This document shows, one piece after another, positions 2 through 49,041 of a DNA stretch of 64,000 nt. How positions within the stretch are numbered: the first letter of the stretch is position 1; every line of letters begins with the position of its first letter. Below the pieces are notes generated by a model. It was not told the DNA's origin and made no database searches. It saw nothing but the letters and a program-made list of their open reading frames with translations. Made by a program: the position numbers and the translations under genes. Origin of the DNA: Candidatus Omnitrophota bacterium (GTDB lineage Bacteria > Omnitrophota > Gorgyraeia > VGKH01 > JBHPFN01); contig JBHPFN010000004.1 in NCBI GenBank assembly GCA_042571725.1, positions 507 to 64,506 on the forward strand, read 5' to 3'.

Positions 2-3000
2 TCACCAACAAGGGATACTCGGGATTCGCCGCAACAAGGCGGCGGCGCAATGTTTGTTTCGTTTTGGCCGCTGTTACTGCTAGGCGGCGCAGCACTTGCC
101 GGTGCGCATTTGTTTGGGGCAGAATGCTTAGCTTACGCGGGTATCCCATTCTTAGCAAAAAAGGGTTCTGGTGGCAGAGCTAAGGCAAAAGGCCTGCTGG
201 GTAGGGGATGGGAAAGGGTTACTACCTTCTTTAGTCCTCCCAATATAGCGCAGGAGCGAAGCAGTGATCAGATTGAAGAGCGTGAACTCGAATTAAGAAA
301 TCTAGATGAAGGCGAAACCATTACGCTGAAAGATGGGAGTAATAAAAAATATAGATTTACTTTATTGAAAAAGCCAAAAGGAATGAGAGGAGTTTTATGC
401 TACGATCCCTATCTCGACGGTGACGAAGACAAGATAATGTATTTTGCAAAGGCAAGGGATTTAGATGGCGGAAGAAATGTCCTTCTTCTGTTTAATCTTC
501 AGGCCTCTCAATTATCAGAAGAAGCATTGTCAGATAGAAGCCGAGAAAACATTGCTTTTTTGGCTAAAGTTAACCATCGTAATATTGCGCCTAACCATGT
601 TCTAAAAGACTCAAGAGGAGATATAGTAGTCGTGATTCCTTATTTTCCTGTTCAGGATCCAACACACCTACGCTTCTACCATAGAGATAAGGTAAGCCGT
701 TTTAAAGATGTTCTCTTTCGCTATTTAGCCAATTGCGACAGGATCGAAAGAGAAGACGTCATTAAGCTTCTGGATATGATTGTCGGTTTAGCTGATGCCT
801 TTATGTGTTTCATTGATGATCTTGAGGTTGTTCCGGGCGACTTTGATTTCTCTATAGATGAATCCGGCGTGATATTGTTGGTTCCTAATTATCAAGGGTA
901 CACTACGCTTGATTACCAACGTGACAAAATGGAAATAGAGAGAAAATTATTAGAAATCATGCATGGCTGCATAGAAGCGATAGAGCCATTTTTACCAAAC
1001 GAACCCCGCTATCATTCATTAATTCATCGAGCATTAGGTATCCTAAAAAACTACAGGTACTTTTGGGATAGGTCTAAAAGTAAAACTATTGGGGATTTAG
1101 TAGTTGATTTACAAAGTATGCGGGCTGATTTTATTGCTCAAGATCAAACTCCCGGAACTTTTGAACCAACCTATCATGATTTATTGGGACAAAGGCGAGT
1201 ACCGTGTAGGTTCTCATGGCAAGAAGACGAAAGTTTTGTAAGTCTTGAAGCCAAAAAAGCAGAGTCTTGGTGGGAACTTTTTGGCAATGCTAGCGCTCAC
1301 CAAAAGGAACGGGAGCTAGCAATAGCTTCTTCAGAGCTACTAAAAGTAGGCGTAAGCATTTCAGATTTTGTGAGAGGTAAAAAAGTTCTCTCTATTGGTT
1401 TTGGCAAGTGCGTTGGTGAGCTTGGAGTATTAATTGAAGAATATTCTGAAGATGCGTCAGGGATTGTGGGTATAGAGTGGGAGAGGGATTTAGTTGTTGA
1501 TGCGGCGCAAGGACTTTTTAATCGCTTCGCTGATGCTTCAGGAGATGGCGTCTATCGCCAAAGAGTTTTGGATAAGGTAAGGCTCTTTTGTGAGGATGCC
1601 GCTTGTCTAAATGAAATACTTGAGGATAATTCTGTCGGATTTATCTATGTGGCTAATATATTTGTTAATGATTTTCCGATTTCCAAAAATAAGAAACAGG
1701 CGATATTTGAAGAAATGATGAGGATCTTGGAAGATGGGGGAATTGTTGTGTTGATCACTACGGATGATTGGGTAAAAGAAAAGCTAAGAGAAACAGGTAC
1801 TGTTATTTGCGAACAGCAAGCGCTCGTTGTCTATCAGCATTCTAATCAATCAGCGCAAGAGACAAAGCCTGCTTTGGATGTTGCGCAAATGGTTTCTTCC
1901 TGGTGGCCGATGGTGATTCCGCTTGGCCTTGGTCTGTTAGAGAGCTTTACTGGTGGAATCACAGAAACAACCGGGCTTGCTGTTTTCGTGGGGATTCCAT
2001 TTTCACTCGAGAGAATACTCAATGGGGTTAATGGTATCCGCGGTTCGCCGTGGCTGCGCAAGCCTAAAAAGATCTTCCGCAATCGTTCCACCGCTATTAT
2101 CCTTGGCCTCTTAATTGTCCTCAACGGCATAGCACCCTTTCCCGGAAAACCCAGCATTGCCCAAAACGATATTGCCACTTTGGTCTTTATCATCAATCTC
2201 ATCGCAGGAATTATGTTTCTTCCCTTGATGCAGTTTATGTTTAACGGCAGATTCATCGCACTTTCAAAAGATTTAACCAAAAAACAATGGCGTGACATCA
2301 TAGGGCACGGGTTGCTCATCCAGGGCGTTGTCTTCCCCTTGTTTTTATTGGGCTTAGGGCTTGTTTCGGAAAAAACCTTTGTCATTGTGACTCGTCTACA
2401 GCCATTTCTGATATTGTTGCTGGGTATCCTATGGTTTAAAACGGATACGTTCGCATGGAGGAAATTAATCGGCTTTGTTTCTGTAACGGGCACCATGGCT
2501 CTATTTCTTGCATCAAAGACTTCCGCAGGCAGTAGCCAGATGTGGGGGGTTATCTTTGTGGTATTGGCAACCATTGTGGGATCGGTTGCGAACTGCTGGA
2601 GAGGAAAGATAGTAAGGGTCATCGAAAATGGCGCCTTGATTACAGTCTTATCGATTTGGATCGGTGTAGTTACAGGGGTGCTCCTTGCGGGGCTGGCGCT
2701 CATCGGCTATGCTATCGGGTTTGCGAATCCAGATATTCTTAATGAGCTTTTTTCAATTCATCATGTGTACCCGGTGATATCTTGGCAATTGATTGTGTAT
2801 TCCCTCATCTTAGGCTGGGGCCTGTTTCTTAATTTTGAAGCGCACGAACGCAATCCAGCGGCCCCGTTGACAAATTTGCTTTCGTTTGCTCCGGTTGTCA
2901 CGATGATTGTTTTCCAGGCTATCCATCGGACTATGCCAGTATCGAATGAGATTGTAGTTGTCGCAATTATGATTCTCGGGACGTTCTTGATAAAGCGGTC

Positions 3001-6000
3001 TTATCGGGGCAAAACCGGGCTGGGCAAGGGCAACAACGAAGTTGATTTACACATTCACTCAAAACCCTATTCTCCCGGAGCAACGCTGCTCTCCGAAAAG
3101 ATTGTGGATGAAGCAGTTGAAAGGGATTTAAAGGCCATTGCAGTTACCGATTACCATTCTTTGAGAGGCACGGTGAAAGCAATACGCTACGTTGAAGAAA
3201 AGGGATTGAATAGTAAGATTGAAATCATCCCCGGCGTTGAAATTGAGACAAAGGAAGGCTATCGTCTGCTGGTTTATTTTCCTGATGTTCAACGGTTTAG
3301 AACTCATTTCGATAGAATTGAAGCCACCATGCCCGAGATGGAGAAGAGGACCGCGCGAGAAGTTTTTCGGTGGGCCAACACTTCCGGTTTTGGCGGCGTT
3401 GCCATTTGTTCCCTTTCGGGCGAAGGTCAAAAACCGACCAACGAGCGAGAGATGGTTAAGCTCTTACGTCAAGGGTGTGACGGTTTTGAAGCAGATCACT
3501 CCTCATCCCGCAGCCGCAGCGTAGTTAATACCTTGATGATTCTTAATAACTGGAACTTTTTCTACCCTACTTTTGCTAAGATTATCACTGTGGGCAGCAA
3601 TTTTTATGACGGTCGTAAGCAAGAAATCGGCCGCGGATGGCCCGGTAGAAGAGACTTTAGACATGCGTACAGTTGGGGTTATGATTTAGTTGAGGATCTT
3701 AAGGCTCTGGCAAACCGTAAGATTCTTCAGCAAGAGCAGAGTGATGGCACGCTAGCCTTAGGCCCTGAATTCGATCTGCGTGAGTATCCTTATGTGTTAA
3801 ATTCTGCCAGACAGGTTGAGAGAAGTGCGACGCCGATGATTGACCTGCATGTGGTTTCTTCCTGTTCCCACAGGAAGCGTCCCTCGCCATTAGAGATTAT
3901 CGAATCAGTCTCACGCAGGGGAGTCAAAACAATTGCCTTTGCCGACATAGGGACTGCGCAAGGTGCCATAGATACAAAAGAGCTCGCTGCGGAAAGGGGA
4001 GTGGAGGTTATTCTCGCGGTTGAGATTCATACCAATGAGCTTGAGCATCTTCTTGTGTATTTTATTGAAGGAGCGCAGCGCATGTCTGCTGAGGATATCG
4101 AGATTCTCATTCAGCAATCCAAGAGAATGACCGTTGAAGAGACGATTAACTGGGCGCGTGCCTTAGGCGGCATTGCTCACCTGGCGCATCCGGGATGGTA
4201 CGGAGAACCGTTTGATATAGAGAGGTCCCGAGCCTGGTGTAATGCAGGTTTAGGCGGTTTTGAAGTTGACCACGGATTTTTTAGATCAAGAAATCGGCTG
4301 CCAATTATGGTGTTTCTTTTTAAACACAACCTATCAGAGATCTGGAAAAACCCCGATGGTTCAAGCCTTGATTTAAAAACCATGACCGTCGGCAGCGGCG
4401 GCAAAGGCATACCCTGCCAAGGCTGGGAACATAAAACACAATGGCCTGATGCTCCTTCGTACGGGCCTGGGGTTGTGGAGGCATTGAAGCGCAAGGCAGC
4501 AATGCAAAACGCACACGCAACAGAGAGCACAGCTTTGCCGGCAGCAGGCCAATCCGGAACAGGTGATGGAGTAAGTTGCTTTATGGGGATGGGATCCGGC
4601 GCATTAGACACCATATTAGGGACGTTTCTGAATTTGTTCAGAGAACTGTCCCTCATAGGGACACACTTAGCTTTAGCATCAGAAACGTCCCTAATTAGCT
4701 TTGGCGGGATGGTGTTGGGTGTGGCCATTGATGCTGATGACGAATGGAGAGAAGAGCTTGATCGAATAAATCATGAATTCAAGCAACTACAAAAGGAAGA
4801 AGGATTATCAACAGAAGAATATGTAGACAGAGCAAATATTTTAATCGTGGAGCTTGCAGAATATGCCAAAAAAGCTTGCATGGATATAAATGCGTTTCCT
4901 CTTTATGAGAAACTCCTTCTTTCAAAGCAAGAAAGGGTAAAGGCTGATCCGAAATACTATAGAGAAGGAAAAAGAATAGATCCTTATGAAGAAATTGCCA
5001 AACCGCTTGGAAGAGGTCCGATTTTTGTGTTTATTAATCCTTACTCACGCCCTTACGGCTTTTGGTTACCGACAAATATTTTCCATCTTTCTAATGAGTT
5101 AAGAGCTGCAGGTATCGCTCAAGGTCATTCATCTATTGCTTCTGGCGATGTAGTCAATGTATCTTCGGCTTCATTAGATGATGAAATAAGAAAAATGCGA
5201 AACTATTATGGAGACAGAGAATTGATTTATGGAATATCGACTAGTGAAACATTATATCCGGCATGCATGGAATTTGTAAAAGCAATAAGAAGGAATGAGC
5301 CAGAGTCCTTGGTTGTTCTAGGCGGACATATGGTTAATGCTGACCATGAAAACGTTGCCAAGCATGCAAGGCAACTAGGGGTAAATGTTTTAGTCAGAGG
5401 AGGAGCAAGGAATCTCCCTGAGTTAGTCAAGGCATTAATCGGCCAAAAAGCAAACGAGCCTATAGGAGCAGATTTAAGGAAATTTGTAGAAAGTCAACAG
5501 GGAGTATTGTTGCTTGCTGGCGGTAAAGAGGCAGAAGGAAGATATTATGATATTGGAAATGAAGCAGAGACCTATCCTGACTTAGAAAGCAGAGTCTTGC
5601 ATCCAAGCGTTGTAAGGTATGCGGCAGAACTTTCTGCAAAAGGTGCTTATCTTAAAGAAGAAGACAGAAGAACAATGACTATCCAGATAACTTCGGAGAT
5701 TGGATGTCCTTATGGGTGTGATTATTGCTCCGGTCCCTTTAGCAAGGTTAAATGTGTAAGCGCAGGAAAATTGATTGCTGAAATAGAAGAGATTATAGAC
5801 ATTCTAGGCCTTGAGAATGACATCGTTATTGAGCTTACAGGTGCAGACACACTGATCAATAAAAAACGAATAAGAGAGTTCTTAGATATTATTTTAACTG
5901 ATAAGAGGCAGCTTATTCCTTATCTGAAGAGATCAAAATGCACTGCATCTGTACGCTCATTCTATGTTGAAGGAAGATTGGATGAAGAGTTGATAGATAA

Positions 6001-9000
6001 GTTAGCCCAAGTTTTTGGCGTTGTGCAAATTGGAGTTGAAAGCGGTGACGATGAAGAACTCGTACGATGGGGCAAGGGGGTAACATGGAGTCAAACAGAA
6101 GCTCTTTTTGAGGCAATTGAGAGAGCAAATAAGAAACACAAAACATCTTTTTCAGTTGATATGTATGCAATTGCATCTGGACTAGAGACGCGGCCACGTA
6201 ATTTAATTAACTCATTAGCAAATCTCCTCTATGCCTTTTTGCGATATGATTGCATCGGAAGAACCTATGTCATGTCTGTAGTGATACCTGATATTGGATC
6301 AAGAGTTTTTGTACGACTAACTGACGATGATATGAGAAGGATGGATCCTGATTACAGAAGACAGTACAGAATACTTGAAGAATTAGATTGTTTCTTATAT
6401 GAGCACGTTCTTCCAAGAGACGCATTGGTAAGAAGCTTTTTCGTAGGTAAGAAGCTAAGAGAAGAAGTTCTTGGGGCTACGCGCAATGAAGGATGCCCGA
6501 GAGGCTTGGAAGCAATAAGTATTTATGAAGCGCTGTGGAATTTTGGTTATTTATGCGCAGAGCAACGATTAAGACTTACCAAAGAAAAAGAAGAAGGAAC
6601 TAATTGGAATGAAGAAAAACAAGCAAGGTTAGATGAGTTAATAGATGTAATTGATCTTTTTAATGAAAAGCTTAGCTTTATGAAAAGAACCGGACTCAAA
6701 GACAAATATGATGCCATAGTTGAAAAATATTCTGAGCCAGATGAAAGCCAAGGTCGTGGCGGCGGGGCGTTTATTTCTTCCTGGTGGCCAATATTGATTC
6801 TTGGTGGCACGACTCTTGTCGGAGCGCATTTCTTAGGCGTGCAGGGTGCGGAATCAGCTATGATGTTACCGATATTTTTGAAACTCCGACGCCGCGGGCC
6901 GCCCTTCGGCAGGATACGGCTTGCGTTTAATCGAGCAGTCGAAAAAATAAAGAATGAAAGAGATGAGTTAGTCAGAAAAGGATTTATCGGCAATCAGTAT
7001 TGGAGAGATAGAGATAATATTAAAGATGAATTGATGTTGGTCTTTTTTGTAACCGCTGCATACTCATTTTTGTTTAAATACGTACTTGAGGTTTTTGGCG
7101 GCGCCCCTCCGAGCTTATCGATTGCCAATTACATCATTATTGCCATTTTTATATTTCTAATCACTCTTAGCGCCTCAGTAGGACACCCGATTTTCCATAT
7201 CATTCATGCCTATCGAATTAACAAACGGAATAAAAAAGCCGGAATAGAGTTACCGACGGCCAAACAGAGAATCTCTGTTCTTAAAAGACCATTCATTGTT
7301 CATAACACAATAACTGTTCTTGCCATTGCCGCCGTAATGATCGTTAACAACGATATTCTACAAGGAGTATTTGTTTTTGCAGCGATTATTCATTTCTGGA
7401 GAGGAGCCGCAGCGCGTGTAAGTACAGATGGCTACGCAATAGAATCGCTAAAGAAACACGGGCAAGCTTACGACATGTTAAGAGACGGATTTGAGGATGT
7501 GGTAAGAGATGTGCGCTTAGGCGTAATGCAGCGTATCGGGCTTCTTTTTCCGATTGCAATTGAGGCAGAAGGAAGAAGGTGGCAGGTCCACCCTGGGACA
7601 CTCGGGCCGTTTGCAGAATATGTTACCTCGCGTATCGACGCATTATTATCTCGAGGAGATCGAGGCAGCGGTGAACAAGATTTCGACGTGGCGCCCCCTG
7701 TCCCGAGCGCAGTCGAGGGGCTCGCATCAGATGAGTCAACGATGGATACTCGGGATTCGCCGCGGGAAGGCGGCGGCGTAATGATGAGTATGTGGGGGCT
7801 GTTTACCACGCTTGCCGGCCTTTTCTTCGGTGGGATGGTGTTGGGTGTGGCTGCAGATGCTGATAACGATGAGAGTGCCACAGGTAATTTTTGGGCTGAA
7901 GAGGAAGACGTTGAGCTCACAAAGGTCATCACGCTGGAATTATATCTTAATCCTCGATTTAGGGAACTGAGGGGTTTATTAAGTTCTTTAGGTATAGGCA
8001 GAAACTTTAACAAAATACATACAGGTTTAAGATTTGCTCGATTTCTACTTCATGAGGAAAAGGCTCATCCTCACGTCAGCGTAAACGCACTATTATCGCG
8101 CGCTCGAATGCTCAGGATATTTATTGAAATGATGAGGGAGTATTTCTCGGCAGAAGAAATGGTTGAGATTTTTGCGCTCTCATACACGGGATTATTTTTC
8201 AGCCATCAAGTTGAAGGCGCAGAAGAAGCAATTTCGTTACATGATAATAAGCTCAGAGAGACTCTTTATCCTAATGAAATCTTTAATTTAGGGTTAGATG
8301 AGAAGCAATTTGTGCCAATGGCATTAGTGGTGTTGAGTTGTCTGGAAAGATTGGAAAATCCGGATAATGAGACTACTCCCGGAGTAGAAACGCCTACACG
8401 AAGGGTTGTGAGAGAATTCATTGACACGACACTTAATGAGTATATCCCGCGACTTCAGCAAGAGAATCAAAATATTCACCAGGGAGCACCGTTTTATCCT
8501 CCTTATCTAGGTAGTGCAGGTTGGCTCATTGATTGGCAGGAGGGCGCTCGGGAGCGTAGCGCATTATTGGGAGATCACTGTAGATATCACGCCTATCAAT
8601 TTGGATATAGTGCTATAAGGCAGATAGGCTGGGGTTTTAGCGGAGGGCGGATCTGGAATATGATTTCAACACACAGGCACGACTATCCAGCCATTGTTGG
8701 GTTTATTGAGAAGCATTGCAGGCTTGCAAGCGGCAGGATTAGCCTTAGGTTAATTAAAGATGTATTTCAGGGGGGTAAGGCATTTCCAAACCTACCAATG
8801 CTTGAGGAATTTCTCACCAATCGGCCTACCACGACCATCGATGAGCTTATGCAATGCAGCAGCGCTCCATTGATAACACCCTATCACATAGATACCAATA
8901 GGGGTGGAGAAATATACGTACCCATTGGATTTCAGCTTGGGAGGGAAGGCTTTGGTATGGAACATATGAAATCTAAAGTTGCTCAAAGGAGAATTGATCT

Positions 9001-12000
9001 CCAAGAGCTATTAGGAGAAATGTGGTTAGATACTATAATTAAAGTTGGAGTGTTACCTATTATTGGAATGGGATTGCAAGTTCCCGCGGCACAAGGAGAA
9101 AGGATGTTTTTCTTTGGGAAGATAAATCCTCATAGAGTTAGATGGCTACAACAGACCAGACAAGAGATAGGTAGGTTTCAACCATTAAGCGATGAAACCA
9201 TAGATCTATTGGGAAACATTTACTTGCAGGTTGTTGTTGGCCTTGTTGAGGATGAGCACGTCAGAGGCTATAAGGGGAATGTAATAACCGCTTTTCCGAT
9301 TGTTGAGCCCCAAGAGGTAGCTGAGCAGGTATTGGTCAGCGTAAAGGAATTAGATGGTAGAAGGGCCTTGAGTCGACAAAGCATTTATCAGCACATAGTA
9401 CAGCCGTGTAATAGACTTTTTAGGAGATGGGGTGTTCCTTTTGTGATACGACGGCATAAAGAAGGTAAAAGAAAATACACGCTTGTGCCTACTAACGCTT
9501 CAACTGGTAGCGGAATAATTGCTTCGATGTGGGGAATCGTTATTTTACTTTCCGGTTTTTTCTCCGGTGGCATGGTGTTGGGGGTGGCAGAGGGTTTAGG
9601 TTGTAGTGCATCCTTACTGCCGCCGATGTATACCAATGCGCAGGAGGGTAATTTTGTTGGACGCTATAGCAAAATTATTGAGCAAGAAAAAGGCCGAGTT
9701 ACCGCAGATGATGTTGAAGAATTGCGCCGATTCAGCCGTCTCATACCAGAGTTGCTCACTTTAAAATCACTTCGAAGTTGCGATGGTTCAGCATTAGAGG
9801 TTTTTGACCTACTTGAGAACAATGAATTTGTGGTGAGGTGGCACGATGCAGTAAGCATGGATGCCGATAGAGGAGATTCTCATTGTTATTGTAGCGTTGT
9901 CATCGCAGGAGTGAGATTTATTCTGGATTTAACCGCTGAGCAGTTTGAAACCGCTCCTTCAGAGGAAGAAAAATATACATTTTTAGGTATTGTATTAATT
10001 CCCGCACGGGTTGCGTTTGAGCTTAGGGAAAGGCTTGATTTCTATTCTATGCCCGATGGTTGTCGAGGCTATACATCTACGTATGTTGATTGGAGGAAGG
10101 CTCAAGGTTATCGCGTTGAGTATGAAGAAGGCAACCCCGAACTCCTAGAAAATAGAAATCTAGCAGGGATGGTTTCTCTTATCTGTGCACTCGAGGATAT
10201 TGACCCCCGGGTAAGAGAAGCAGCCCAATCACTGCTGGATAATTCGCCCTATGCATTAATAGGCCCCTATAGGAGACGATTGCTGGATCCGGGAGTGAGC
10301 TGGACGATAAGTGAGTCCGTTGCTTCTTTTCTGCTTGATGAATATTTTCGATATGCAGATAATTTTGATGTTCCATTGCCTTTGTTTGTGGTTGACGGTC
10401 CTTCCGGGATTGGTAAGACCACTACAGCGCAAGAGATGGTCAGGGTCACAGGAAAAGGAAAAATAAAATACCAACTAGTGTATTTAAACCTCGATATGTT
10501 TCTGAAGGATCAGGCGTGGCGCCATGAGATAAGAGATAAAATTGCCAGCGGAGAATTACATCCGGACGACTTTGATGAAAGGGATTTCTTTGATTACGAT
10601 AGGATTATTGCGATGTTAAGGGATATTGATGAGTTTCGTCGCTCAGGAGATGAAACCGGTGTGTTGGTGCTTACTCATGTGTGGAATCCCGAGAAAGGAC
10701 GATATGAGGATCTGCAGATTCCCTTGACAAGAAATACAGTTTTTCTTATTGACGGAAAGTATGCACATGAGAAAAGGCTTCGTCCCTTTTACGGCAAGCA
10801 TCCTTTTAAAGTCCGTTTAGACGAGGATGATGATTCGATTGGGAGGAAGTTTGAACACAGAGAACGCGCCAAAGGAAAAAGCGAAGAAGAGGTAGCCAAG
10901 CAGATGATATTTCATGATTTGGTTGTTTTACCTCACTTTAGGCGCTATGCCCAAGAGCCGCAAGAGAACCTTTTTGTCTTAAGATGTTCTCACGGAGAAA
11001 TCCCAACCGAGCCGCTAAGAGATGCAGATGTCGACAGCGTAGAGAGAGAATCCCGCGCTGCAGGCGGCGGGGCGATGATGTTGATGTGGGGGATATTTAC
11101 CACGCTCACCGGTCTTTTCTCTGGCGGGATGGTGTTGGGTGTGGCTGCAGATGCTGATGGAGGTAGAAAGGATGACGCCGTGCCGCCGGCGTCGGGGAGG
11201 GTTGCCAGACTTACCGATAGATTCCTCGGATGGTTGAATGAGCGGTTATTCGCACTACAGCGAATCATCGGCAGAAGACTTTCCGAAAGCCGGCGTTTAA
11301 CGGCAGTTTGGACCAATGAAGAGATAGCTTTAGAGGGTATCTTGCAATTTTCTCCAGCAGAATTAGAAGAGCAAAGACAAAATATCATTAATAGGTATAT
11401 AGTCCCGCAGCGCAGACTACAGTATTTACCGTACGAAAGTAGGCTGCGTGGAAGAAATAGATGGCGCTGGAATGATACGGTGTTCGTTGTTCTTCTTGAA
11501 GATGGTACACAGGTAACTGCGCACTCCAGCCATATCCGCGGAGTTCTTATAAAAGTTGTTCTAGAAATTGAAAATCGGATTCAGCTCGAAGAAAGAAAAC
11601 GGAGGCGTAAACTTTCTGATGATGAAAGAGAGGAGTTCATCCGTCAATTGACCCTTGTGGTGGCTTCCACCGATTACTTAGGAGAAGCTGTGGCTATTGT
11701 GGCGCGGCTTATGGGAGTACAGGCACAGATATTTCTTCCGCAATGGGCTTCACAGGGAACCATCGAAGCTCTCTCGCAATTCGGCGTATCCGTTGATAGC
11801 CATTTACCGGATTATGATGTTGCCAGCGCCCACGCACGCAACTTTTTTGAACTTCATGCCAACGCCATACTCATTGACGGCGCCGAAGACGAAACCAAGG
11901 CCCGGGGCGCAGCCATTGCCGCTATGGAGATGATGCACGAATGGCATAAGTGGATCGGCTACGAAACCATTAAGGCCATGGCGCGATTGATCGCCAAGTA

Positions 12001-15000
12001 TGAAAAAATGAGCCTCGAAGCAGTTATCCGAGAATATGATTACTCAGAACTTGCCCAGCGCTGGGAGGATCTAGAAGAACAATTGAAAAGAAGAGATCAC
12101 AGGCACTACACTTCTGTTAATGAAGATGTCACCATGCTTTCCAGCGCAGAGGCCCAGCCACTCCTTGAGGAGCTTCGGCAGGATGAGGAACTCCTCGTTG
12201 AGTTGGTTAGGCCTATCGGATTGGTACCGAGTCAATTCGTTGTTGTTGGCGGCACGGGATTGGACGCCGCGGGTACAATCGAAGGGCTCAGACGCGACAA
12301 TGTACCGGTTACTATCGTTGAGCCATCCGGAGCTAATCCGCTCTATTGTTCTTTAACCGGAAGAGAAGAAGGTGAGCCGCCGATACTCCTTAGGGCCTCT
12401 GAGACCAGCGCAATCGGTGTACGTGTGCGCTCAGTCGGTCATATGCCGCATGCGGTGCTTCGAAAGACACTTCATAGGGCCGTAACCGTAAGCGAAGAGT
12501 CTGTTGAAGAAATGAGAAAATTCTTAAGCGCAACAGGTCTCGATGTAGAAGGAACCGGCGCACTCCCGCATGCAGCGGTTGTTTTAGAGCGCGCTGATCT
12601 TTTTGACGATGATATCATTTTGCACGTGAACAGTTCGCGCATTGATACTGAGCTCAGTCAAGAAGAATTAGCGCATCCGAAGGCTAAGACGGTTTTCTTT
12701 AGGATCCACCCCAGACTCCAGGAACTTTGGCTTTTGGTACGAGGCGCTATTCGCGTTCCAAGGTTCTCAAGAATCTTCTTCCAAAGAATGCGATTTCAGA
12801 AAATCGGCGGCGAGCGACAACTGGCCCGCCAAGTGGCTGCTGTCTACGAAGAAACAATTCAAGATATTCTTAGGCGATGGGATGCTATCCCCGAAAAAGA
12901 AGAAAGACTGCGCGGTAGAATGAGGCAGCTGATGGGCTTGCTAGTGGAATTAGATATTACCGATTTAAGCGTATTTCGCCTACGCCCGCGCCATTGGATT
13001 TGGCTATACCAAAATACGGTTTTGCAAGGTGAACAGCCTGCGTTTGTCGCACAGGTACGCGAAAGGGTAGAGACCATCTGTAGGATCACGGAGGTGCAAG
13101 ATTTTACGTCATTAGCCGATGCCGAATTCGACGGTTACGGTAAAAAGCTTAAGTCTCTTGCCAGAGAACACAGCAAAACAGATTTTGTTCAATTAGAGCC
13201 GAAAGACTTGATTGATCTATTCGAACACTTCAGCGCAGGGCTACCCTACGATGCAAGGCAGTGGATCCGTCATGCCCTTGATCCGCTGCTCTGGGGCCGT
13301 ACTCAGAAAAACTGGGGAAGAGCCGAAGCAGCACGCGATGAGATTATAGAATCATTTAACCACGACCAGGAGGGCGTAGCCACCGCGTACTATGATAGGA
13401 GGGAGGCGGTGCCGATAGATAGGTTAGTGCCCACACAAGACTTGAAAGCGGAATTTCCGGGCGATGATCACGCAGGAATTGTTAAGAGATTGAGACGCGA
13501 CATCAAAGGAGGCCTTATCGTACCTATTACGGTTTTTGAAATACCGGGAAGTGATGATTATTTTCTTATGTGGGGTGGTCCTCGTGCGTTGGCCAAGTAC
13601 CAAGAAGGCCACGCCACCATAAATGCCTTTATTGTGAAAGTAGCATCGCCGCAAGAGCAAACGCTACAGTTCCTATCCCAGCAGATGCACCTGCGCTGCC
13701 AAGAGAAAGGATTGGCTTCAATTTTGGATCTATTCCCGGATAGTCCGACCAGATTCTTAAATAAAACCCTCCTCTATCCGCCAACCGCGCACCGTATAGA
13801 AAGAGCAATCGACAGCGAAGAAAGAGAATTTACACCGATGACGGACTTTCCTATAAGAGGCGCTCACGTGCGCATAGCTACGTTCAGGTCTGAGGTTCAG
13901 GGGGCGCCGTTAGTCTTTATTCATACCCGCAGAGCGGGAGATACATTGGAGATTTATTTCTCGTTGGCTGCGTTTATACTCTTTCGCCAGGTATTTTCTG
14001 AGTCGGCAAGGCAGGATGGCCTGGAGATGATTGTCGTGTATCTCTCCGAGCGGCTTATCCGGGAGAGGTCGCACACAACGGCCTCAGTTGCGTTTGAGAC
14101 ATACAGCCAGAGATCTGCCCGTATGAAGGAAGCCCGCAGAAGATTGAGACTATTGACCCAGAAGGCAGAGAAGCGAAATCTTACCGGCGACTGGAGAGTG
14201 ACCGGCTCACGCGGAGATCGCGAGCAACCGGAATCCATGCCGGTGGAAGAGGACGATTGGTCAGTGGTCATGCATGCATATTTGATAGTGAGAAATGCGC
14301 ATCTTTCGGCGGACCTTCCTGCCAATAGACATGAATACGAAGACGTTTTGGCCCGTGTAACCAGAAGTCTTTCTGGCCGCCAATTTACTATCACTGTGGA
14401 TGGCAGGGTGATCTTGGCGTATGATGCAGGGTTACAACAAGCTCCGGTCGTTCACGATCTTTGGTTGACGCAAAGGGGAAGAAAAGTATTCTACTCCGCG
14501 GCTGGCATACTCTTTTCAGAAGAAGAACCCTTTATCACGATTATCGGCTCTGCAACACCAACCGATAGATCTGAACATGATACTGATGAGTTTCCAAGAC
14601 TCGTCGATGATAACGAAGCAACTGATGCTACCCCTCCGGAGAGACCGGAGGGAGATCAACCCAGCGGCGGTGGGGCCAGCTGCTTTGTGGGAATAGAGTT
14701 ATTCCAGTTAAGTCTGTTAGGACAGTTAATACAGTTCGCATTCGGTGGGCTGGTGTTGGGTGTGACGGTAGATGCTGATAACAATAATATATCTGAAGGT
14801 CCGCCTGAGCATAGATGGTGGGATGAACAAGAAAGTCCAGCTTTTGATGTATTAGAAGCACAGCTTGAAGTCCAGCGTAGGATTATGGAAAGACTTCAAG
14901 AAAGAATTAATGGTGCAATTCATGGCAAATTTAGATTAAAGTCGACTCCCTTTGTGTGTGCAATCTTTAACATAGCACACGCAGATGCTTTGCGAATACA

Positions 15001-18000
15001 AGTTTTTCTAAGTGAGGAAGAAAGAAGCCGCGACCCTGAATTAGCAGATGCCCTGGCAAGTTTGGGTATGAGTAAGGGGTGGATTGGAATAATGGATATA
15101 GTAATAGCTACAGACATAAAAATGCAACCTCTATTGGTCATTTCGGAAGTATTGGTTGCAAAAGCTTATTGGAGACTTAGAGATAGAGATAAACGAAAGA
15201 TTAAGCGTTGGCATAAATTACTTGTTAGCTACTTTGAGGCGATAAAAGAGGAAGTCGGCGTAGCAGAGGTTCTGAAACCGACCAATGGACAAATGAAATC
15301 TCTTCCCGCTCTTCAAAGGGAATTTGAGGAGAGAGCTCATTTACCAGATGCAATCGATGAACTTTACGGCAGGCCTTCTCGCGAATACAGAGATGAAGAA
15401 AGAGAAATTTTAATTTGGAAGTATGGCGGTTGTACGGTGAAGGCGGATTTTTGGGTTTATAGAGAGGCATTCCTCGTATCAGACAGTTCAACAAGGGATA
15501 CTCAGGATTCGCCACAGAAAGGTGATGGGAACGGCATAATAACTTCGATGTGGGCACTGTTTACTACACTTGCCGGCATTTTCTCCGGTGGGATGGTGTT
15601 GGGTGTAGCAAGTGGGTCAGATGGAGTTGGCAGTCCCTCATTGGTTTCCGAGAGGGGAGATTCACCTTTATCCATTTCGGAAACAAAACGCAGAGCATAC
15701 GATGAGCTCGCGAGAAGAAGAAAATATGATCTTGGCGAAAGACCTGCAATGAAAGAAGCAGCAGCATCAATTTTTGGCCAAGCGATTCCGCTCGATGAAG
15801 TAAGGGGCAGCAAAGTTTTGGACGTGGCTATAGGAGCGGGTTTGATATCCGGATATGCTGCAGAAAATGGTGCCAGAGAAATTGTAGGCGTAGACATATC
15901 GTCCGGAATGCTTAAATGGGCGGATAGCAACCTCGCCCCATTTACATCAACCGCTACAATACGTCTGATTAAAGGAGATATTTTAAGATTGGCCGATTTA
16001 TTCAGAAAGGAAGATGGGCAAGTAGAGAAATTCGAAATTATCACTATAGGCAATGTGCTTTCTTTTTATCCTCCTAAAGAGAGAGTAGCAATTTTATCGC
16101 AGGCATTAGAATTGCTCGAGGAGGGCGGATATATTGTTCTTCTTTATAGAAGCATGGATGAGGTGAAAAATCCTCTCGCAACTCTTGTTTATCGTAGGCC
16201 CATGATACCAAAAATCACACCAGATGGGTACGTTGAAATTCTGGAAAATTTAGCAAGAGACTTAGGATATACTGTTGAGGCAGGGTTTTATGCTGCCAAC
16301 TATGAGACAGATACGGATTATAATCGTCAGTTAAGCGATCTTGAGGTGGTAGTAAGTCACACTATGGTTCTCTGGGCAAAAAGAAAACCTTTGGCAGCTC
16401 GAAACATCGGAGATTTACCTACACCCGCGCAACCCGGCGGCGACGACGCGAGCTGTTTTATGGGAATGGGGTTATTCCAGTTAGGTTGGTTAAGTCAGTT
16501 ATTTCAGTTCGCATTTGGTGGGATGGTGTTGGGTGTGGCAGAGGGGTCAGGCTCATTTGAACAAGCAAGAGGATTTACATCGTATGAATACGAGAGATAT
16601 GGTTTGAACCTTTCCGATATACCAGATGAATTTGCGTGCGAGCCGCTCGCTATTATTAGAATAAGAGAGAATCTATCGCAGAGAAATTGGTTCTGGAGGC
16701 ACGCGACGCCCAAGATTCGAGAAAGAGCAATAGAGCGTATTAAGACATTGATGAATAAATTAGAAGCATTGCAAAGTTTAGAATCATTCAAAAATATTAT
16801 CGGAGACAGGAAGATCGTTGCTATTTACACGGCTGGTAGTTATCCATGGCATGATGACCCAGGGGATATAGATGTTCATTTCGTCGTTAGAGGGGAAAGA
16901 GGATTTGAGCTGATATATTTATCTGCAGAGGAAGCTGATGAACTCAGCATTGCTTTAGAATTCACCGGTAGAAAAATGACAAGAATTGCATTGCAGATAT
17001 TTGGTACAACCAATTTAGAAAGGGCGGCACAAGACATAGAGATCAAAGATGGAGGAAATCTTCAAAGAAAATTATTGACTATATATGGTAATGCTGTGCA
17101 ATTAGGCGGATTAGATTTATTTGAAAATAGTCAACCACCCGCTAATGACTTTCACATTTTAGCCTCCTGCATAAGAAGTTTAGCTGTTGGTTCCGTGAGA
17201 GAAAAACGTCTTCGGGAAGCAGAAGCTATAGAAGATTGGTTGGCAGAAGGGATAACCACCCCGAAGATGGGTGTGGCAGAGGTCGGTGGTTTTAGTAGTG
17301 GGGTAGACATAATTACGATTGCTAACCAAGTAGCACAGCGAAGCGGTCATGCGGGAAGCGTGGCTTTAAAAATTCACGCCTTTTTAAACAGAAGCAACCC
17401 AGATATACATAGACATGCTGTTTTACTTTCGCGTGCCTCGAAAAGTTCTGTGCCTGGCATGAAAAGATCTAAGGTTCCACCTAATCCTGTTATTAGTATT
17501 GCCTCGGCAAAATATATGCTTCGCGCAGCCGCAATGAGGGCCGGTAAAACGAAATATTATGATTCGTCGATTCCAGAAGAATCTAGCAACCCAGAAGATT
17601 CGCATTCTGGCGGTGGGGCGATGTTTATTTTTATATGGCCGGTGGTGATTCTTGCAGCTTTACTTGCTGTGCCGACGATTGCGTGGGCGGGTGAATTTGG
17701 AAAGCTTATTGATACAGCCAATTCATTTTATCAATGGTATGCAGCTTTATTATCAACGCATACTCTTATAGTTAAGATTTTGACCTCAGCGATATTGTTG
17801 GCTATCGGAGATTTCATCGCCCAATGGACCGAGAAAAAATCCCTACGATCATTAGATAAGTGGCGTCTGATTTATATGACAATCCTGGGTGGCGGTTACG
17901 GTATCGTATGGCACGTCCTGTTTATGCTGCTTGAGAAAGGTTTTCCTGGTAGGGATCTTCTAAGCGGAGTCTTACCGAAGCTATTAATTGATCAAGGGCC

Positions 18001-21000
18001 TTTTACAATGTTTTTTCATTTTCTTAACTTTTTTATGGTTGGGTTATTCGGAGGCGTTGGGAGCTTCTTTGCAACCGGAGTCTTTACATTTACATTTGAA
18101 AAGTATAAAGACACGATAAGGAAGGATTACAAACTAGCTTTATTCACAAATTGGCTGTATTGGCCAACCATTCAAGCGGTAAGTTATCTTATTATTCCTC
18201 TTGATTTCCGAGTCCTATGGGTGAATATTGCTTTTATTTTTTGGGCACCTATTCTTTCTAAAATAGGTCATGGCGAATGGAAAGCATTCACACGAAAACT
18301 CGCAAGAAATCCTCGTTCCGGCGGTGGGGCGATGATGTCAATATGGGGATTATTTACCACACTTGCCGGCCTTTTCTCCGGCGGGATGGTGTTGGGTGTG
18401 GCCGCAGATGCGGGTGATGTGAGCGCCACAGCTGATTCGCACGATTATCTGATCCTTGCTGAAGCGCAAAGGTTATTTGAAGGGGAAGGGATTGCGCACC
18501 GCGTAGAAGAGGTTATCGCCTTCACTGGTCCGCAACGGGCATTCATTGAATACGCCATATCAAAATTGAATCAAGGTTATCAATTAAGTGATGTTGTCTA
18601 TCTGGTCGAATCGGTCCGGCAGACAAGTTTTGCGCACGTTGAGGAGTTATTATCAGATGATAGGATTATTTGGTATGCCAATCGACCAAAGGCTACAATT
18701 GGCACCATTATATGGCATACCGTGAATTGCGCGTATCGGGACAATATCCATCAAGCCCATACACTGATGTATGAGTTAGGTATCGCCCCGAGTTGCCTAA
18801 AGGGAATCATAGATGCCATCGGTTTCATAGGTATTGAAGACGTTCGCTTATGGCTAACGGGTCGTGAGTTTCCAATCCGTCCGAGTGAGATCTTTAGAAT
18901 TGCGCACCTTCAGAAACAGTCATCTATGGAAGAGGTGAAAAAGGCTTTAAGATCAGGCACTGAATATCTCCGGATACAGGATGACATGACTGAACCACGA
19001 TGCTTTTCTTCGATAGAAGAGGCAATAGAAGTTCTTGGTCACGAAGAATTGAAGGCGCTGAGAGTTAGCCCGCAGAGGCCGCTAAGAGTTTCGGATGTGC
19101 TTTATGTTGTTGCTGTCCTAAAAGAATATGGGGCTGATGAAGTCAATTTTGCCATGTCGTTTGGCGTAGATCCATGGAAGTTACAGTATGTTTTAAAAGG
19201 CTTGAGAAGCGATCGAGAAAAATGGTTATCTTGGCTTCAGGAAAGAGAACGATACGGACGATACAAAGTAACTTTAAATCGAGCCGCTCAAAGCCGCCGC
19301 GCTCTAGAAAGCTTTCGGACGGCAGAGCAGCATCGCCGGGAACAAAGAGGTTTTCGATTACGGCTATTTGACTTTGAGGCTCGGATTTATCCATTTTCGG
19401 ATTATGACCCCCGGGCAAAAGCTGATGCGGATGAAGATTTCGTATTAGCCCTTTATCCGAGCGGTTCAGATTCTTTAAGAAGCCCAAAGAAGAAAACAAG
19501 AAAGATAGGTTTTCATTATCCGCACGGCACGATAGGCGGTATGCGGTTTAAGATCATCAATAATGAAATTATTGTTTGTGACGTTCAAAGCGACATCCAG
19601 GAAGATCTTCACCGACGCTATAAATATTGGTATACGATGATTCTCGTGGTGCTTGAAGATTTTGCAGCTGAATTTAGTATCACTCGCATCATCGTGCCAC
19701 CAGCGTATGCTCAATTCAGATTATGGGCAGAGCAACTCTACGGCCCGAATCCTTTAACAATGTTTTCTTTTTATGCACGAGGATATCCTGCTGGAGATTA
19801 TTCACTTCGACAAATGCCCGACGGGGCTATGCATGGGTTAGTCGCCATGCCCTTTGCGTGGACCAAAGGGATTAACGCAAGAGACGAGCTTGATGTTTCA
19901 ACCGTGGAACGTTGTTTCTTTGAACTTTTGGAAAGAGAAATAGGTCAGTCAGCGAAAGAAGAAGCGGTAAGAGGCGGAGGAGCAATGGTTTCGATGTGGG
20001 GATTGTTTACTACGCTTGCCGGCCTTTTCTCCGGTGGGATGGTGTTGGGTGTGGCAGGCGGGCTGGATGAAGCTCGTTCTTCCACACCGGTGGAGACAGA
20101 GAAGAGCAGATCGCAGGTGCTATGGAATGTGGCAGAAAGATTGGGTTCTTTGACTTCTATTGAAGAGAGAGGTGCTTGTGAGGATGCATTTGCGGATGCG
20201 CTAAAAACTGCTCTTGCGAGAAAAGAGGCAATGAGATTACTTGATTTTATAAGGTCTAGAGCAAGAAGAGAGCCAGACGAAAACCAGCCTTGTCCAGGTT
20301 TTTATTATGTTCGTCAAGACTCGCAAGAAAATCTCGTGTTAGCTCGATTTGCTGAAGGTGACTTTCTGGCTGCTATTTTAGGCAGCAAGTTTGCACCTCC
20401 CGGCAATGAACAATCTGTGTGGTATGGCAATGAGGCAAAAGACATCATGCTCTATACAAATGTTAACAACAATGGCTACATCGTAGTTTTTCCTAGTGCT
20501 GCATTTAATGCATTAGCTAATCAAGGCCAAGCAAAACATGTGACTGGTTTACCAGATCTAGAAGAATGGCACTATTTCTATGTTAAAGACGATTTGCCCA
20601 TTTCAGGGGAAACTACACCACTAATTTTTATAGGCACAGGACTGAGCGAGAAGTTAGAAGCTGCACAAAGCGAAGATGCACAATTAAGAGAAAAATTGGA
20701 GGCCTTAAGAAAACAAGTTCAGATTGAGGTCTTAGATCTTACAAAACAAACCATGGTTGATAACCTAGAGGCTGCACTTGCGCGTCATGGTTTCAAATTT
20801 GTGGGGAAAAAGTTCTGGCCGAGCTGGAAAGTTATTATTTACAATGTTCTGCAGGTTCCAGAAATGAGCGAGATTACAGAAAAAATATTAAGATCAGAAG
20901 GCGAAGACAGTGCCTCTGTTTCCTCGCCAGGAGGAGATCAACCCACCGGCGGCGGGGCATCCCTCGCATCAGATAGGCTAACAGATGATCGAATATTCTT

Positions 21001-24000
21001 ACAAGCTGTTAGGGATGCTTTACATGCACGACCTTTTGTCCCAGAACAACTTATTCGTGCTCTAAAGCGCGATCCAGAAATCCGCAGATTATTTGAGACG
21101 AAAGCAAAATCCTGGATTAGTCAAAGAGTTCGGGCAACCTTAGAAGCACGTCACCCAGGAGCCGTGAAACAGTGGGTTTTGGACACTCTCGAAATACATA
21201 CTCTAAGAGTCATGCATCAGTTTGAGCGCTATTTAGCAGCGGAAGAGCTGCCTTCAGGCGCAGATCTTAGCATGTTCAGATTGCTGTTAGCGCTACACGA
21301 TATTGGTAAGCCGCTTACAAAAGGTGATGAAGATACTCGTAAACAATATGTGCACACGCAAGATACTATTAAAGAATTGCGGCATAAACTTCCTTTGCCC
21401 GCAGAGCAAATTGATTTAATGATGGCTTTGCTTGATGGAGACCCTCTTGGTTTGTATATGCAAGGATCTACAGCAATAGAAAAGACCAGGACAACTATTA
21501 TTGGGATGAACAATAGAGTTAAGTATCCATTAGCAGACTTCTTTAGACTACTTACTCTCTATTATCAATCCGATACACTAAGTTACACTTTGGATGCAGG
21601 GTATGATTCTGATTGGCTGGCGGGACTCTTTGTTTTCGATATAGAACATTCAAGGTTTGTTTTTGATGATGAAGCGGGAAGGATGAAATTTTCAGGAGAA
21701 AAAGAAAGCAGATTTCGAGCTTTGGAAGAATCGATTGTTAGTTTAAATGTCGGGCATCGGGAAATCTACCCAAAAGGCGGTGGGGCGAGCTGTTTTGTGG
21801 GAATAGGGCTATTTCAGTTAGGACAGTTAAGTCAGTTAGGTCAGCTTGCCCTGAGTGCAGTCGAAGGGTTATTTCAGTTTACATTTGGCGGGATGGTGTT
21901 GGGTGTGGCCAGCGGGTCAGATGAATCTCGTTCCTCCTCGCCGGCAAGAAGAAACAGGAGAAATGACGATGCTAAAAGGAAGCTAAGGGAAGCTTTTGAG
22001 AGAGGGGAAGATATTGTCATAGCGCTTTCAGATAGAACACCACAAGCAAAATTGTTTGCATTTGACTGGGATGGCATTTTTGCAAAAGAGAAGGGTTATT
22101 TTGAAAAAGCCTGGGCAGCTTTAATAGTTATGATAAAGAACAAAACAGAAAATATTAATGCGGGGGAGCTCAGCCCTGAGCAGGTTCAAGAAGGTGAAGT
22201 TTTTAGAAGGGAAACAAGAGGCATGGAATACGCTTTACGCTTCGATCGACTAAGAGCAATGGCCTTGCAGTCTGGAGCGGATAGATCTCAACTAAGAACT
22301 GATCAAGAGTGTGCAGATATATTTTACGAAATAATTATTAGGCTCGCTCAACAAGATTTTGGAGAAGATTTAGAGGATTGGATCTATCCGGAATCAAAAG
22401 CATTTTTAATAAATTTAAAAACCGATCATCCAGATAGGTTAACATATGTTGTTACAGCAAATATTCAAAACGCCTTTAGGGAAATAATAGTTTCACGATT
22501 TAGCATAAAGAGATATTTTGACGGTATTTTTGGGCATCCTTTGAGATCAAGCCCGGATAACATTATAAATAAGACTACTATTTTAACCGAATTAAGACAG
22601 AGAAATGGTTTGGGTGTTAATGAGGTTGTATTTTTTGGTGACGCGGTAAGCGACATAAGATTCGGAAGAGAAGCAGGTGTAATCGTTGTTGGGGTAGCCA
22701 ATACTTATGAGAATGGTGTGCAATTAATAGATGCGGGAGCAGATATTATAGTTACTAGCCTAGCTCCTAGAAGAGAAATTATGCAACTATTAATGGATAG
22801 CTCCGCTTCTTCACCGACGGGAGAAGGTAAGCCAACAGGCGGAGGGGCGATGGTTTCTATATGGGGACTGCTTGCCACGCTCACTGGACTTTTCTCCGGT
22901 GGGATGGTATTGGGTGTGGCAGCAGATGCTAAAAACGATGAGGGCGCCGCAGGAGATTCAGAAACAGATACCGCCTCATCGTTGATGACAGTGCGAACGT
23001 TTAGCACCGGAAGGCATTCATTCCAAATTGTTTCAACTCCGCACGATACCGAATTTGGCATTGACTTATCTGTCCCCCATGAAGGCAGAGAGGAATGTGA
23101 GATTGGAATACATCTATGGAGATTTGCACGCTTGGCTGAATTTTTTATGGATTCTTACCGAGGTAATATGGAGAACGGGCCCGGCTATTTAGAACAGTGG
23201 ATGAGGACACACGATATAGTTACTACGTTTCTTGATGAAGACGAGCATCGCTTGCTGTGCGGTGAGAGATTGACATTGTTAGGGCGGCAGACAACTGTGG
23301 AAGATCGAGAACTTCTTGAAAAGAACTTTATTCCAGAATTATTAGGTTTTATTGTTACCATCGCAAGCAACGATGAAATAAGGGAGCAATTTCTGAGGAT
23401 TTGCAATGAGGAGCTGGTAAGATGGAGCGACCCATATATTCGAAGCCATTTTATTCCTGCAGAAATTCAAACTGTAATACAGCAATTTCAAGGCGGGCTT
23501 AGGGGGCTTGGTAACGTCAAGCCTCTTGATGTTGAAATAATGCAAGTTTTGAGAATTTTGTCGAGAAGAAGGCTACCGGTAAGAAAATTCTTCATGTACG
23601 AAAGAGACACTCGATGGGCTAGAGACGAAAAACTGCTCTTACCTCATTTGGAAGGCGAGCCTTATTATTTCGTCTTCCCAGGTGAAGGAGAATTTGATAA
23701 GGATGAGACCCATTTATTCGAGAGAGGTGCGGTTGTTTCAGGAATCGCGAGAACGCCGTTTTTAATTTATGCAGATTCGGTGGATGTACAGGAAGTAGAG
23801 GCCTTAGGTCGTTATGCGCGAGAAAATATTCCTGGATACGAAGCGCTCAGCGTGTATAGGCTACCGGCCGGCTGGGCCACATTTCAATTTGGAAATAAGA
23901 TTTACCTTTTAGATAACGCTCATCTTGATTGTGTGAGCGGATATATTCCAAGAAGATTTAGTCATCGTAACGAGAATATTCTTTTACTCGATCCTCACTA

Positions 24001-28062: not shown

Positions 28063-28160
28063 CTCACCAATCACTACTGAAAGCCTGAGTTTTTCGACAC
28101 GAAAGAAGGTATGTGTACATCTCTATGTACGCATCGGGTCATCCATAAGGAGTGATCGAA

Positions 28161-45854: not shown

Positions 45855-45883
45855 TTGACAATTATTTTCTTTCGCTGTAGTAT
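45855..45883 (+). promoter_or_regulatory. Candidate sigma70 promoter for the riboswitch-btuF transcript
   Basis: TTGACA (45855-60), 17-nt spacer, TAGTAT (45878-83). Confidence 0.4.
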
Positions 45884-45896
45884 AAAGCAGTTGTTC

Positions 45897-48731: not shown

Positions 48732-48764
48732 TGTTTTTTGACAACCTGGCTTATATTGGTGCTC

Positions 48765-48960: not shown

Positions 48961-49041
48961 ATTAGAGAATGTTTCTTACAAAGCCTCGTGGATAGGCCTA
49001 AGGAGACTATAGATTTTTAAGGGTAAAGTAAAACAGGGTGC

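Follow-up and report, generated by a model that had tools for sequence, protein, structure and literature searches.

Giant open reading frames (ORFs) of 10,000 to 147,000 amino acids (aa) are a known puzzle in Omnitrophota. Seymour et al. 2023 cite a Velamenicoccus giant protein of 39,678 aa with 42 predicted transmembrane (TM) helices. West-Roberts et al. 2023 reported C39 and S8 peptidase domains near the N-termini of giant proteins together with "numerous transmembrane regions", called some of the resulting localisations "highly unlikely", and left cleavage unresolved (10.1101/2023.11.21.568195). In a 2026 preprint, such proteins appear as "multi-enzyme metabolic clusters" that have roughly one TM helix for every 370 aa (10.64898/2026.06.07.730766). 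Published work takes the hydrophobic segments of giant proteins as TM helices and leaves the question of cutting open. Here we analyzed a 64,000-nucleotide (nt) stretch from Candidatus Omnitrophota bacterium (GenBank GCA_042571725.1, contig JBHPFN010000004.1, positions 507 to 64,506, forward strand; hereafter the window, in whose own numbering all coordinates are given), which contains the 3′ part of one such gene. Its encoded modules are set apart by a recurring junction motif. We tentatively favor, at somewhat less than even confidence, a reading in which these junctions are this lineage's form of a module-delimiter motif that runs across the syntenic giant multi-enzyme genes of an Omnitrophota clade and is recognised after translation. 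In text searches of papers on these giant proteins, neither a repeated delimiter motif nor junction forms that differ by lineage turned up.

The gene belongs to this already-known class, showing two of its traits: many divergent enzyme domains in one polypeptide and numerous predicted TM helices. More than 9,166 aa of coding frame lie in the window; the ORF counted from its first ATG (nt 50) is 9,150 aa long (50..27502, + strand), and the frame is free of stops from that ATG back to base 2. The residues preceding the ATG (..TRDTRDSPQQGGGA-M) repeat the sequence found upstream of other junctions, and the DNA at 2-52 is 87% identical to the sequence before junction J4 (7737-7783). Given the open frame and the repeated pre-junction residues, the gene runs past the 5′ edge of the window and its apparent N-terminus is itself a junction. 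Pfam identified PHP, EamA, B12-binding and radical SAM, PALP, S-adenosylmethionine (SAM) methyltransferase, Mpv17/PMP22, HD, HAD and transglutaminase-like core domains, all with modest scores, divergent and mutually unrelated, and found no family match for about half of the modules. Some 20 unrelated modules are set apart by 13 junctions, and they look like complete proteins, among them multi-TM transporters (EamA, Mpv17) and cofactor enzymes; 44 segments of the ORF reach a KD19 of at least 1.6. The "Archaeovorin" or multi-enzyme-cluster giants (Kizina et al. 2022; West-Roberts et al. 2023; 2026 preprint) are alike in phylum, in tiled divergent enzyme domains, in many predicted TM helices and in poor conservation between genomes. 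Of the SecA-DEAD, C39 and S8 domains linked with this class, Pfam found none in the 9,150 aa that the window shows, upstream of which lies the N-terminal part of the gene. Word-index protein searches with the module at aa 6085-6700 and with aa 1-5000 gave no matches. The Omnitrophota origin of the window is supported by the adjoining GH94 protein, which matches a "Candidatus Omnitrophota bacterium" entry at NCBI with 100% identity and whose next ~100 named matches are also from Omnitrophota. The gene and its best-defined modules are as follows.

2..27502, + strand: giant Omnitrophota gene, 3′ part (ORF call, open frame, syntenic orthologues of 11,957-32,516 aa)
5702..6145, + strand: radical SAM core with intact CxxxCxxC (CPYGCDYC) and a B12-binding domain before it (Pfam); an obligately cytoplasmic enzyme type
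10397..10423, + strand: Walker A motif GPSGIGKTT (aa 3450) of a P-loop module (PRK / uridine-kinase-like) between J5 and J6
11747..12628, + strand: pyridoxal phosphate (PLP)-dependent enzyme (PALP, E 1.4e-25; Pfam) between J6 and J7
15815..16129, + strand: SAM-dependent methyltransferase (Pfam) between J8 and J9
26240..26608, + strand: transglutaminase-like core (papain-like fold) with candidate Cys-His-Asp, in the last module (Pfam; motifs HCFNCA..RAVGVFARY and HIFAEVFVDGAWRRFDVT)

An invariant core, GG[ML]VLGV, occurs in 13 copies in the ORF and nowhere else in the six-frame translation of the window; GGGATGGTGTTGGGTGTGGC is the delimiter core. With three junctions of a second kind and two bare GGG motifs, every module boundary carries a conserved motif, and the junction motif is far beyond chance. 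The 13 core-bearing copies take two forms: type A reads GGG[AV]MMSMWGLFTTLAGLFSGGMVLGVA, with a stretch of ~25 aa after the GGG, and the longer type C reads GGGASCFVG...F.FGGMVLGVA and spans 32-46 aa. Type B (GGGA-MF.SFWP...GAH, more fully GGGA-MF.SFWP.L.LGG..L.GAH..G..GAE) precedes multi-TM modules and is found three times (50-157, 6758-6886 and 17609-17695), in two cases with a strong basic cluster after it (KKGSGGRAKAKG; KLRRRGPPFGRIR). By the positive-inside rule these clusters predict an N-out/C-in orientation, which sits badly with a cytoplasmic radical SAM module ahead of it in an uncut chain. Two boundaries, at aa 6967 and aa 9123, have a GGG without a hydrophobic helix.

4559..4729, + strand: J2, long type C, before the B12/radical-SAM module
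6758..6886, + strand: J3, type B, GGGAFISSWWPILILGGTTLVGAHFLGVQGAES..KLRRRG, ahead of a multi-TM module, with a basic cluster after the junction
7769..7855, + strand: J4, type A, aa 2574-2602, GGGVMMSMWGLFTTLAGLFFGGMVLGVAA
9506..9592, + strand: J5, type A, aa 3153-3181, GSGIIASMWGIVILLSGFFSGGMVLGVAE
11063..11149, + strand: J6, type A, aa 3672-3700, the sole element between the P-loop and PLP-enzyme modules
14666..14770, + strand: J7, type C, aa 4873-4907, GGGASCFVGIELFQLSLLGQLIQFAFGGLVLGVTV, closest to the junctions of relatives
15521..15613, + strand: J8, type A, aa 5158-5188, GDGNGIITSMWALFTTLAGIFSGGMVLGVAS
16436..16543, + strand: J9, type C, aa 5463-5498, GGDDASCFMGMGLFQLGWLSQLFQFAFGGMVLGVAE
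17609..17695, + strand: type B junction before the Mpv17/PMP22 membrane module
18320..18406, + strand: J10, type A
19973..20059, + strand: J11, type A
20948..20956, + strand: bare GGG boundary (..GDQPTGGGASLASDR..) before the HD module
21776..21913, + strand: J12, long type C, mosaic
22838..22924, + strand: J13, type A
24347..24433, + strand: J14, type A
25118..25216, + strand: J15, degenerate type A
27416..27499, + strand: terminal GGG, then a 25-aa acidic tail and the stop codon

AlphaFold2, run on an alignment of nine copies, predicts a single straight helix with a predicted local distance difference test (pLDDT) score of ~85 over the first 20 residues. The small residues S3, G6, T9, T10, G13, S16, G17 and A24 form a stripe along the helix. 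A helical hairpin was rejected, since the model gives one straight helix and a bend at SGG would split it into 16 and 7 aa. Searches for the window's form of the junction were negative: a junction profile run against 1.84 billion representative proteins returned no true match, its lone result, an FG-GAP repeat protein, being spurious; with F-x-GGMVLGVA written as a degenerate DNA pattern, 185,579 species genomes gave 11 single chance matches, all in unrelated membrane proteins, and viral contigs gave none; and JGI metagenomes yielded no relative to one type A peptide pattern.

Comparison with syntenic relatives placed these junctions in a wider family of forms. Seven relatives (L012, L016, L018, L021, L022, L023 and L024), whose GH94 proteins are 71-78% identical to that of the window, retain the gene order of the window, which runs from the giant gene through PilZ genes, GH94, a sugar ATP-binding cassette (ABC) transporter and a major facilitator superfamily (MFS) transporter to GH2/tetratricopeptide repeat (TPR). 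Six of the seven have complete giant-gene calls of 11,957 to 32,516 aa, and L023 is cut by a contig end. A blastp comparison of the window ORF with the 3′ ends (last 2,300-2,950 aa) of L012, L016, L017 and L018 found no shared module; module content turns over very fast. Each lineage has its own junction form: [DE]xS[CSH]FVSF.SGLES.L...GG.VFG[RV]AEE in L012; [DN]xPGFGCFVVPLSLG[VM]VEE in L016 and L017 (PGFGCFVVPLSLGVVEE; PGFGCFVVPLSLG[VM]VEE), in 8 copies spaced 197-616 aa apart; FGC[FY]F.P..FGLFGGD in L021 and L023; and only SS[SPA][PA]V[EV] in L018 and L024. In the 3′ end of the L022 giant gene no evident junction motif was seen. Type C of the window shares a C-F-V start and a (L/F)-G-V-(A/V)-(E/D) end with the L012, L016 and L021 forms, and the SSSP[AV] element of the L018 type is present in window linkers after J11, J12 and J14. 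As a separate observation, S-S-[ST]-P-[AV] and D-S-P recur in the linkers on either side of window junctions (~20075-20095, 21925-21945, 24445-24465 and 22810-22835), the same element that, as SSP[VL]E or SSSAV, is the sole junction motif in L018 and L024.

The forms found in the relatives do not look like membrane spans. Their stretches free of D, E, K and R measure 10-19, 13-17, 14-19 and 5-12 aa, and a Glu or Asp stands mid-stretch in the L012 junctions, which are amphipathic (hydrophobic moment, muH, up to 0.36; mean hydrophobicity, <H>, 0.31-0.41). Maximum KD19 is 0.8-1.4 in 7 of 8 L016 junctions and at most 1.1 in L018, compared with 1.3-2.0 in the window. Charge-free stretches of this length cannot reach across a bilayer. 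What the junction conserves is therefore not a membrane span but probably a signal for processing or for a module boundary, and the TM-like look of the window junctions is a local elaboration.

The properties of the window junctions themselves bear on a topology paradox raised by the first-pass annotation, which had argued that consecutive junction helices share one flank-charge polarity and hence call for processing or a non-TM role. The six consecutive junctions on which it drew, J4-J9, are real and correctly placed, their C-terminal flanks are acidic or small as it had described, and the modules between them lack any credible TM segment, the only KD19 peaks above 1.5 carrying Hessa sums of +6 to +9 kcal/mol. 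The polarity itself proved weak, and the charge argument built on it is not supported. A basic residue, said to stand a few positions before the GGG in most, lies within four positions in only three of six (J4, J6 and J8), and the N-terminal flanks are net acidic or neutral in five of six, with the C-terminal flanks acidic too; K+R against D+E over the 15-aa N-terminal flank is 2/4 in J4, 2/0 in J5, 2/4 in J6, 1/3 in J7, 2/4 in J8 and 0/2 in J9. With both flanks acidic, a positive-inside signal is lacking in either direction. The helices are borderline hydrophobic (KD19 1.3-2.0, Eisenberg <H> 0.55-0.70, Hessa sums +0.4 to +5 kcal/mol), whereas genuine transporter helices in the same ORF have KD values of 2.4-2.6 and negative Hessa sums. 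The stretch free of D, E, K and R is 24-38 aa long in 11 of 13 junctions; in the other two, J2 and J12, it measures 15 and 18 aa at the motif. An in-plane amphipathic helix was rejected for type A because the hydrophobic moment is too low (0.04-0.13), and a lipobox reading of the junctions was rejected as well.

The paradox is nonetheless legitimate on biochemical grounds. Single spans in an uncleaved chain must alternate, as the annotation had reasoned, and a model in which every junction is a TM helix puts cofactor enzymes on both sides, with the P-loop module and the PLP enzyme facing each other across J6. In a parity count that takes the type B helix, four TM segments and a type A helix as six spans, the radical SAM, PLP, SAM methyltransferase, HD and transglutaminase-like modules share a side, and opposite them come the P-loop, HAD and GNAT-like modules. 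The annotation's alternative of a non-TM role draws strong support from the relatives, whose homologously placed junctions run to only 5-19 charge-free residues and are often interrupted by Pro, Glu or Asp.

Selection acts on the junction peptide. Across the nine type A copies, the ratio of nonsynonymous to synonymous differences (pN/pS) drops from about 1 in the flanking linkers to 0.35 for the helix as a whole and to 0.13 for the 3′ half of the helix. In the 3′ half pN is 0.04 and pS 0.32, so far apart as to indicate purifying selection on the peptide; pS in the linkers is ~0.7. Synonymous sites of the 3′ half are also uniform, in codons that are rare in the ORF (TTG 9/9, TCC 7/8, GGG 8/9, TTC 8/9). 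A DNA core of ~40 nt (CTTGCCGGYCTTTTCTCCGGYGGGATGGTGTTGGGTGTGGC; 7800-7850 and the equivalent positions in every junction) is nearly invariant even at synonymous sites, and is probably a gene-conversion or recombination tract. In the L016 and L012 junctions codons vary and the peptide is kept. A conserved RNA structure at the junction was rejected, the fold being weak and the covariation term -0.35. J12 is a mosaic, its 5′ half resembling type C junctions J7 and J9 and its 3′ flank resembling type A junctions J14 and J11 (repeat families D2 and D3; 21776-21946 set against 14657-14764 and 24407-24466). Each of the four possible pairings of a 5′ type with a 3′ flank (ADAD, SGSD) is present. The J12 mosaic and the four combinations together indicate crossover inside the invariant core.

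In the delimiter reading, the forms of the different lineages would share a skeleton consisting of a small residue, C/S-F-V, a variable middle and (F/L)-G-(V/R)-(A/V)-(E/D), with the middle expanded in the window genome to a helix of 22-40 aa rich in Gly, Ser and Thr. The delimiter would mark a module boundary for post-translational recognition and cleavage, making the ORF a polyprotein. Cutting at or near the GGG would release soluble modules, such as the HD module behind a bare GGG, while other modules would be set free with the hydrophobic helix still in place, tethering their N-termini to the membrane. The delimiter DNA, with its near-identical core, would at the same time serve as an in-frame crossover point for module shuffling. 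This reading is supported by the conserved and lineage-specific motif, the boundaries with a bare GGG, and the complete, unrelated modules that include whole transporters. It is likewise suggested by the short charge-free stretches of the relatives, by flanks without a positive-inside signal, by borderline hydrophobicity, by selection on the peptide and by the J12 mosaic, and it is in keeping with a transglutaminase-like Cys-His-Asp core in the chain and with the C39 and S8 domains reported in giant proteins. By extension, Omnitrophota giant genes in general could be bacterial polyproteins, in which dozens of unrelated enzymes and membrane proteins are made as one chain and released at lineage-specific delimiters by a co-evolving protease, the delimiter DNA doubling as a site of in-frame cassette exchange. 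We hold this wider proposal to be possible, though less likely than not; if true, it would amount to an operon organised at the protein level.

Several points weigh against the delimiter reading. Cleavage, the protease responsible and the membrane tethering of products are steps that we infer. The first-pass annotation had seen no rhomboid, sortase or dedicated protease gene in the window, and this now needs amendment, as the last module has a transglutaminase-like (papain-fold) core and M28 and M48 peptidase genes lie downstream, none of them linked to the junctions. The core is a possible candidate for a protease acting in cis, and the module has no match among sequences of solved structures. 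C39 or S8 domains would be expected in the N-terminal part of the ORF, which the window does not include. Because not every form in the relatives contains Gly-Gly, which is missing from the L016, L021 and L018 junctions, one protease specific for Gly-Gly cannot explain them all. The proposed homology of the forms rests on few shared residues (CFV ... LGV[VA][ED]), with no statistically scored alignment behind it. It is the P-loop module that carries most of the topology paradox, since in an all-TM model the parity count puts the three cofactor enzymes with the best annotation (radical SAM, PALP and SAM methyltransferase) together. Proteomic data on the Velamenicoccus giant protein are too sparse to decide on cleavage.

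The junctions could instead be uncleaved, non-spanning connectors, hydrophobic or amphipathic helices whose small-residue face makes them sticky, lying in or on the cytoplasmic leaflet or bundled with one another, so that all modules stay on one side in a single membrane-associated multi-enzyme assembly. We regard this as rather unlikely, although several observations favor it: the small-residue stripe is typical of helix-helix packing, the L012 junctions are amphipathic, AlphaFold2 gives one straight helix, hydrophobicity is borderline with the forms of relatives too short to span, and the 2026 preprint sees many such proteins membrane-anchored, with cytoplasmic content on the inner face (10.64898/2026.06.07.730766). 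Yet the 17-aa L016 motif with its invariant P-G-F-G-C-F..P, like the bare SSPVE of L018, looks more like a recognition site than a connector, there is nothing to stick at boundaries with only GGG, and the low hydrophobic moment of type A is not that of a classic in-plane helix. True single-span TM helices in an uncleaved chain, with modules lying by turns in the cytoplasm and beyond it (periplasm, cell coat or prey), are what papers based on DeepTMHMM and TMHMM assume. KD19 does reach the classic threshold of 1.6 at most junctions, the uncharged stretch is long, published predictions come to about one TM helix for every 370 aa in giants and 42 in the Velamenicoccus protein, and the parity count groups together the radical SAM, PALP, SAM methyltransferase, HD and transglutaminase-like modules, with the HAD phosphatase opposite them. 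The same count would leave the P-loop NTPase and the weakly annotated GNAT-like modules outside, without ATP or acetyl-CoA. Moreover, neither flank is positive-inside, Hessa sums are positive, the equivalent junctions of relatives cannot span, and West-Roberts et al. doubted some localisations that follow from such spans (10.1101/2023.11.21.568195), all of which makes uncleaved spans improbable.

It is quite improbable that the junction works mainly at the DNA level, as an in-frame scar or hotspot of recombination through which modules are swapped, with the peptide as a tolerated by-product. The strong conservation of 3′-half synonymous sites in ORF-rare codons, a pS less than that of the linkers, the mosaic junctions and the 3′ ends of relatives without detectable shared modules would fit such an element; the peptide is itself selected, however, synonymous sites of L016 and L012 vary freely with the peptide kept, and no convincing conserved RNA structure was found. 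A DNA-level role probably acts alongside a function of the peptide and not in place of one. Separate synthesis of the modules by internal initiation at a junction Met, with the helix as N-terminal anchor, had also been raised in the first-pass annotation and is extremely unlikely. Of the 9 type A junctions, 7 do have a Met after GGG[AV], and GGAGG lies 4-6 nt upstream of it in J11 and J13. Against this, a Met is missing from 6 of 16 junctions and a Shine-Dalgarno (SD)-like site from 14 of 16, so that internal starts were rejected as a general mechanism (an SD-like site with a Met at only 2 of 16), and with no stop codon in 27.4 kb, upstream ribosomes would read through regardless.

Better-known processing systems resemble the junctions of the giant gene in part. 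In flavivirus-type polyproteins, internal signal or anchor helices are cut by signal peptidase on one side and by a viral protease on the other. These polyproteins are alike in having one ORF, unrelated modules and single hydrophobic helices with basic or small residues before and V-x-A after, and their topology is solved by cleavage, which is only a candidate here. They are unlike the present gene in its acidic flanks, bacterial host, some 20 or more modules including complete multi-TM transporters, and a lineage-specific delimiter of 17-45 aa. C39 peptidases cut after Gly-Gly. The likeness to double-glycine leaders lies in Gly-Gly(-Gly) directly at module boundaries and in the C39 domains reported in Omnitrophota giants. 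The difference is that the sequence before the GGG is polar and does not fit LSxxELxxIxGG, and that the window has no C39; read by eye, an internal ..LAGLFSGG|M has hydrophobic residues at -4, -12 and -15 and lacks the L at -7 and the E at -8. In MARTX toxins a protease in the same chain releases effector modules, but the window ORF has no CPD domain.

Other sorting and processing signals fared less well. A Gly-Gly motif followed by a hydrophobic helix recalls GlyGly-CTERM proteins sorted by rhombosortase, an analogy proposed in the first-pass annotation; as GlyGly-CTERM substrates the junctions were rejected, being internal, with flanks that are acidic and a helix followed by an acidic stretch and not by a basic cluster, and no rhomboid-family or rhombosortase gene is in the window. 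The annotation's likening of junctions to signal peptides also falls away, with no positive n-region and an h-region of 22-25 aa, not 7-15; a Sec-type cleavable signal peptide was rejected because N-terminal flanks are net acidic and a c-region is lacking, only G-V-A|A fitting the -3/-1 rule. The G-C-F or S-C-F that opens type C, L016, L021 and L012 junctions resembles the G|CF of Hedgehog/intein (Hint) domains. A Hint fold, however, needs ~130-150 aa after the Cys, here a different module starts 12-40 aa later, and type A has no Cys. A Hint, intein or Hedgehog domain was rejected, as the junctions of 17-46 aa are followed by unrelated modules and the ORF has no Hint Pfam match. Two relatives do carry a Hint / PT-HINT / intein-splicing protein of 1,011-1,166 aa just past GH94 (L012 13088-16123; L022 12679-16179), which is absent from the window.

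With a conserved, lineage-specific delimiter at the module boundaries, topologies of giant proteins that are based on TM counts are probably unreliable. The delimiter offers exact candidate sites of cleavage or module boundary, testable in existing proteomes (e.g. PRIDE PXD025008) or in two-module constructs, and suggests a route for the quick gain and loss of modules.

The genes that follow the giant gene are partly shared with its relatives. In the window, two PilZ-domain genes lie directly downstream of it.

27733..28541, + strand: two PilZ-domain genes

Among the relatives (L012, L016, L018 and L021-L024), two to four PilZ genes, encoding cyclic di-GMP (c-di-GMP) receptors, always come after the giant gene and before GH94 and the sugar-uptake genes, a hint of c-di-GMP control over the locus. 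Some 30 kb past the end of the giant gene, the window also has genes for M28 (57147-58136) and M48 (59393-60190) peptidases and a DsbA-like thioredoxin (58489-59220, - strand). Two cobalamin riboswitches (45878-46074 and 48740-48972) stand ahead of a BtuF/FecCD/ABC transporter and a TonB-dependent receptor, and a B12-dependent ribonucleotide reductase is encoded at 51517-53781, after the riboswitch-led genes.

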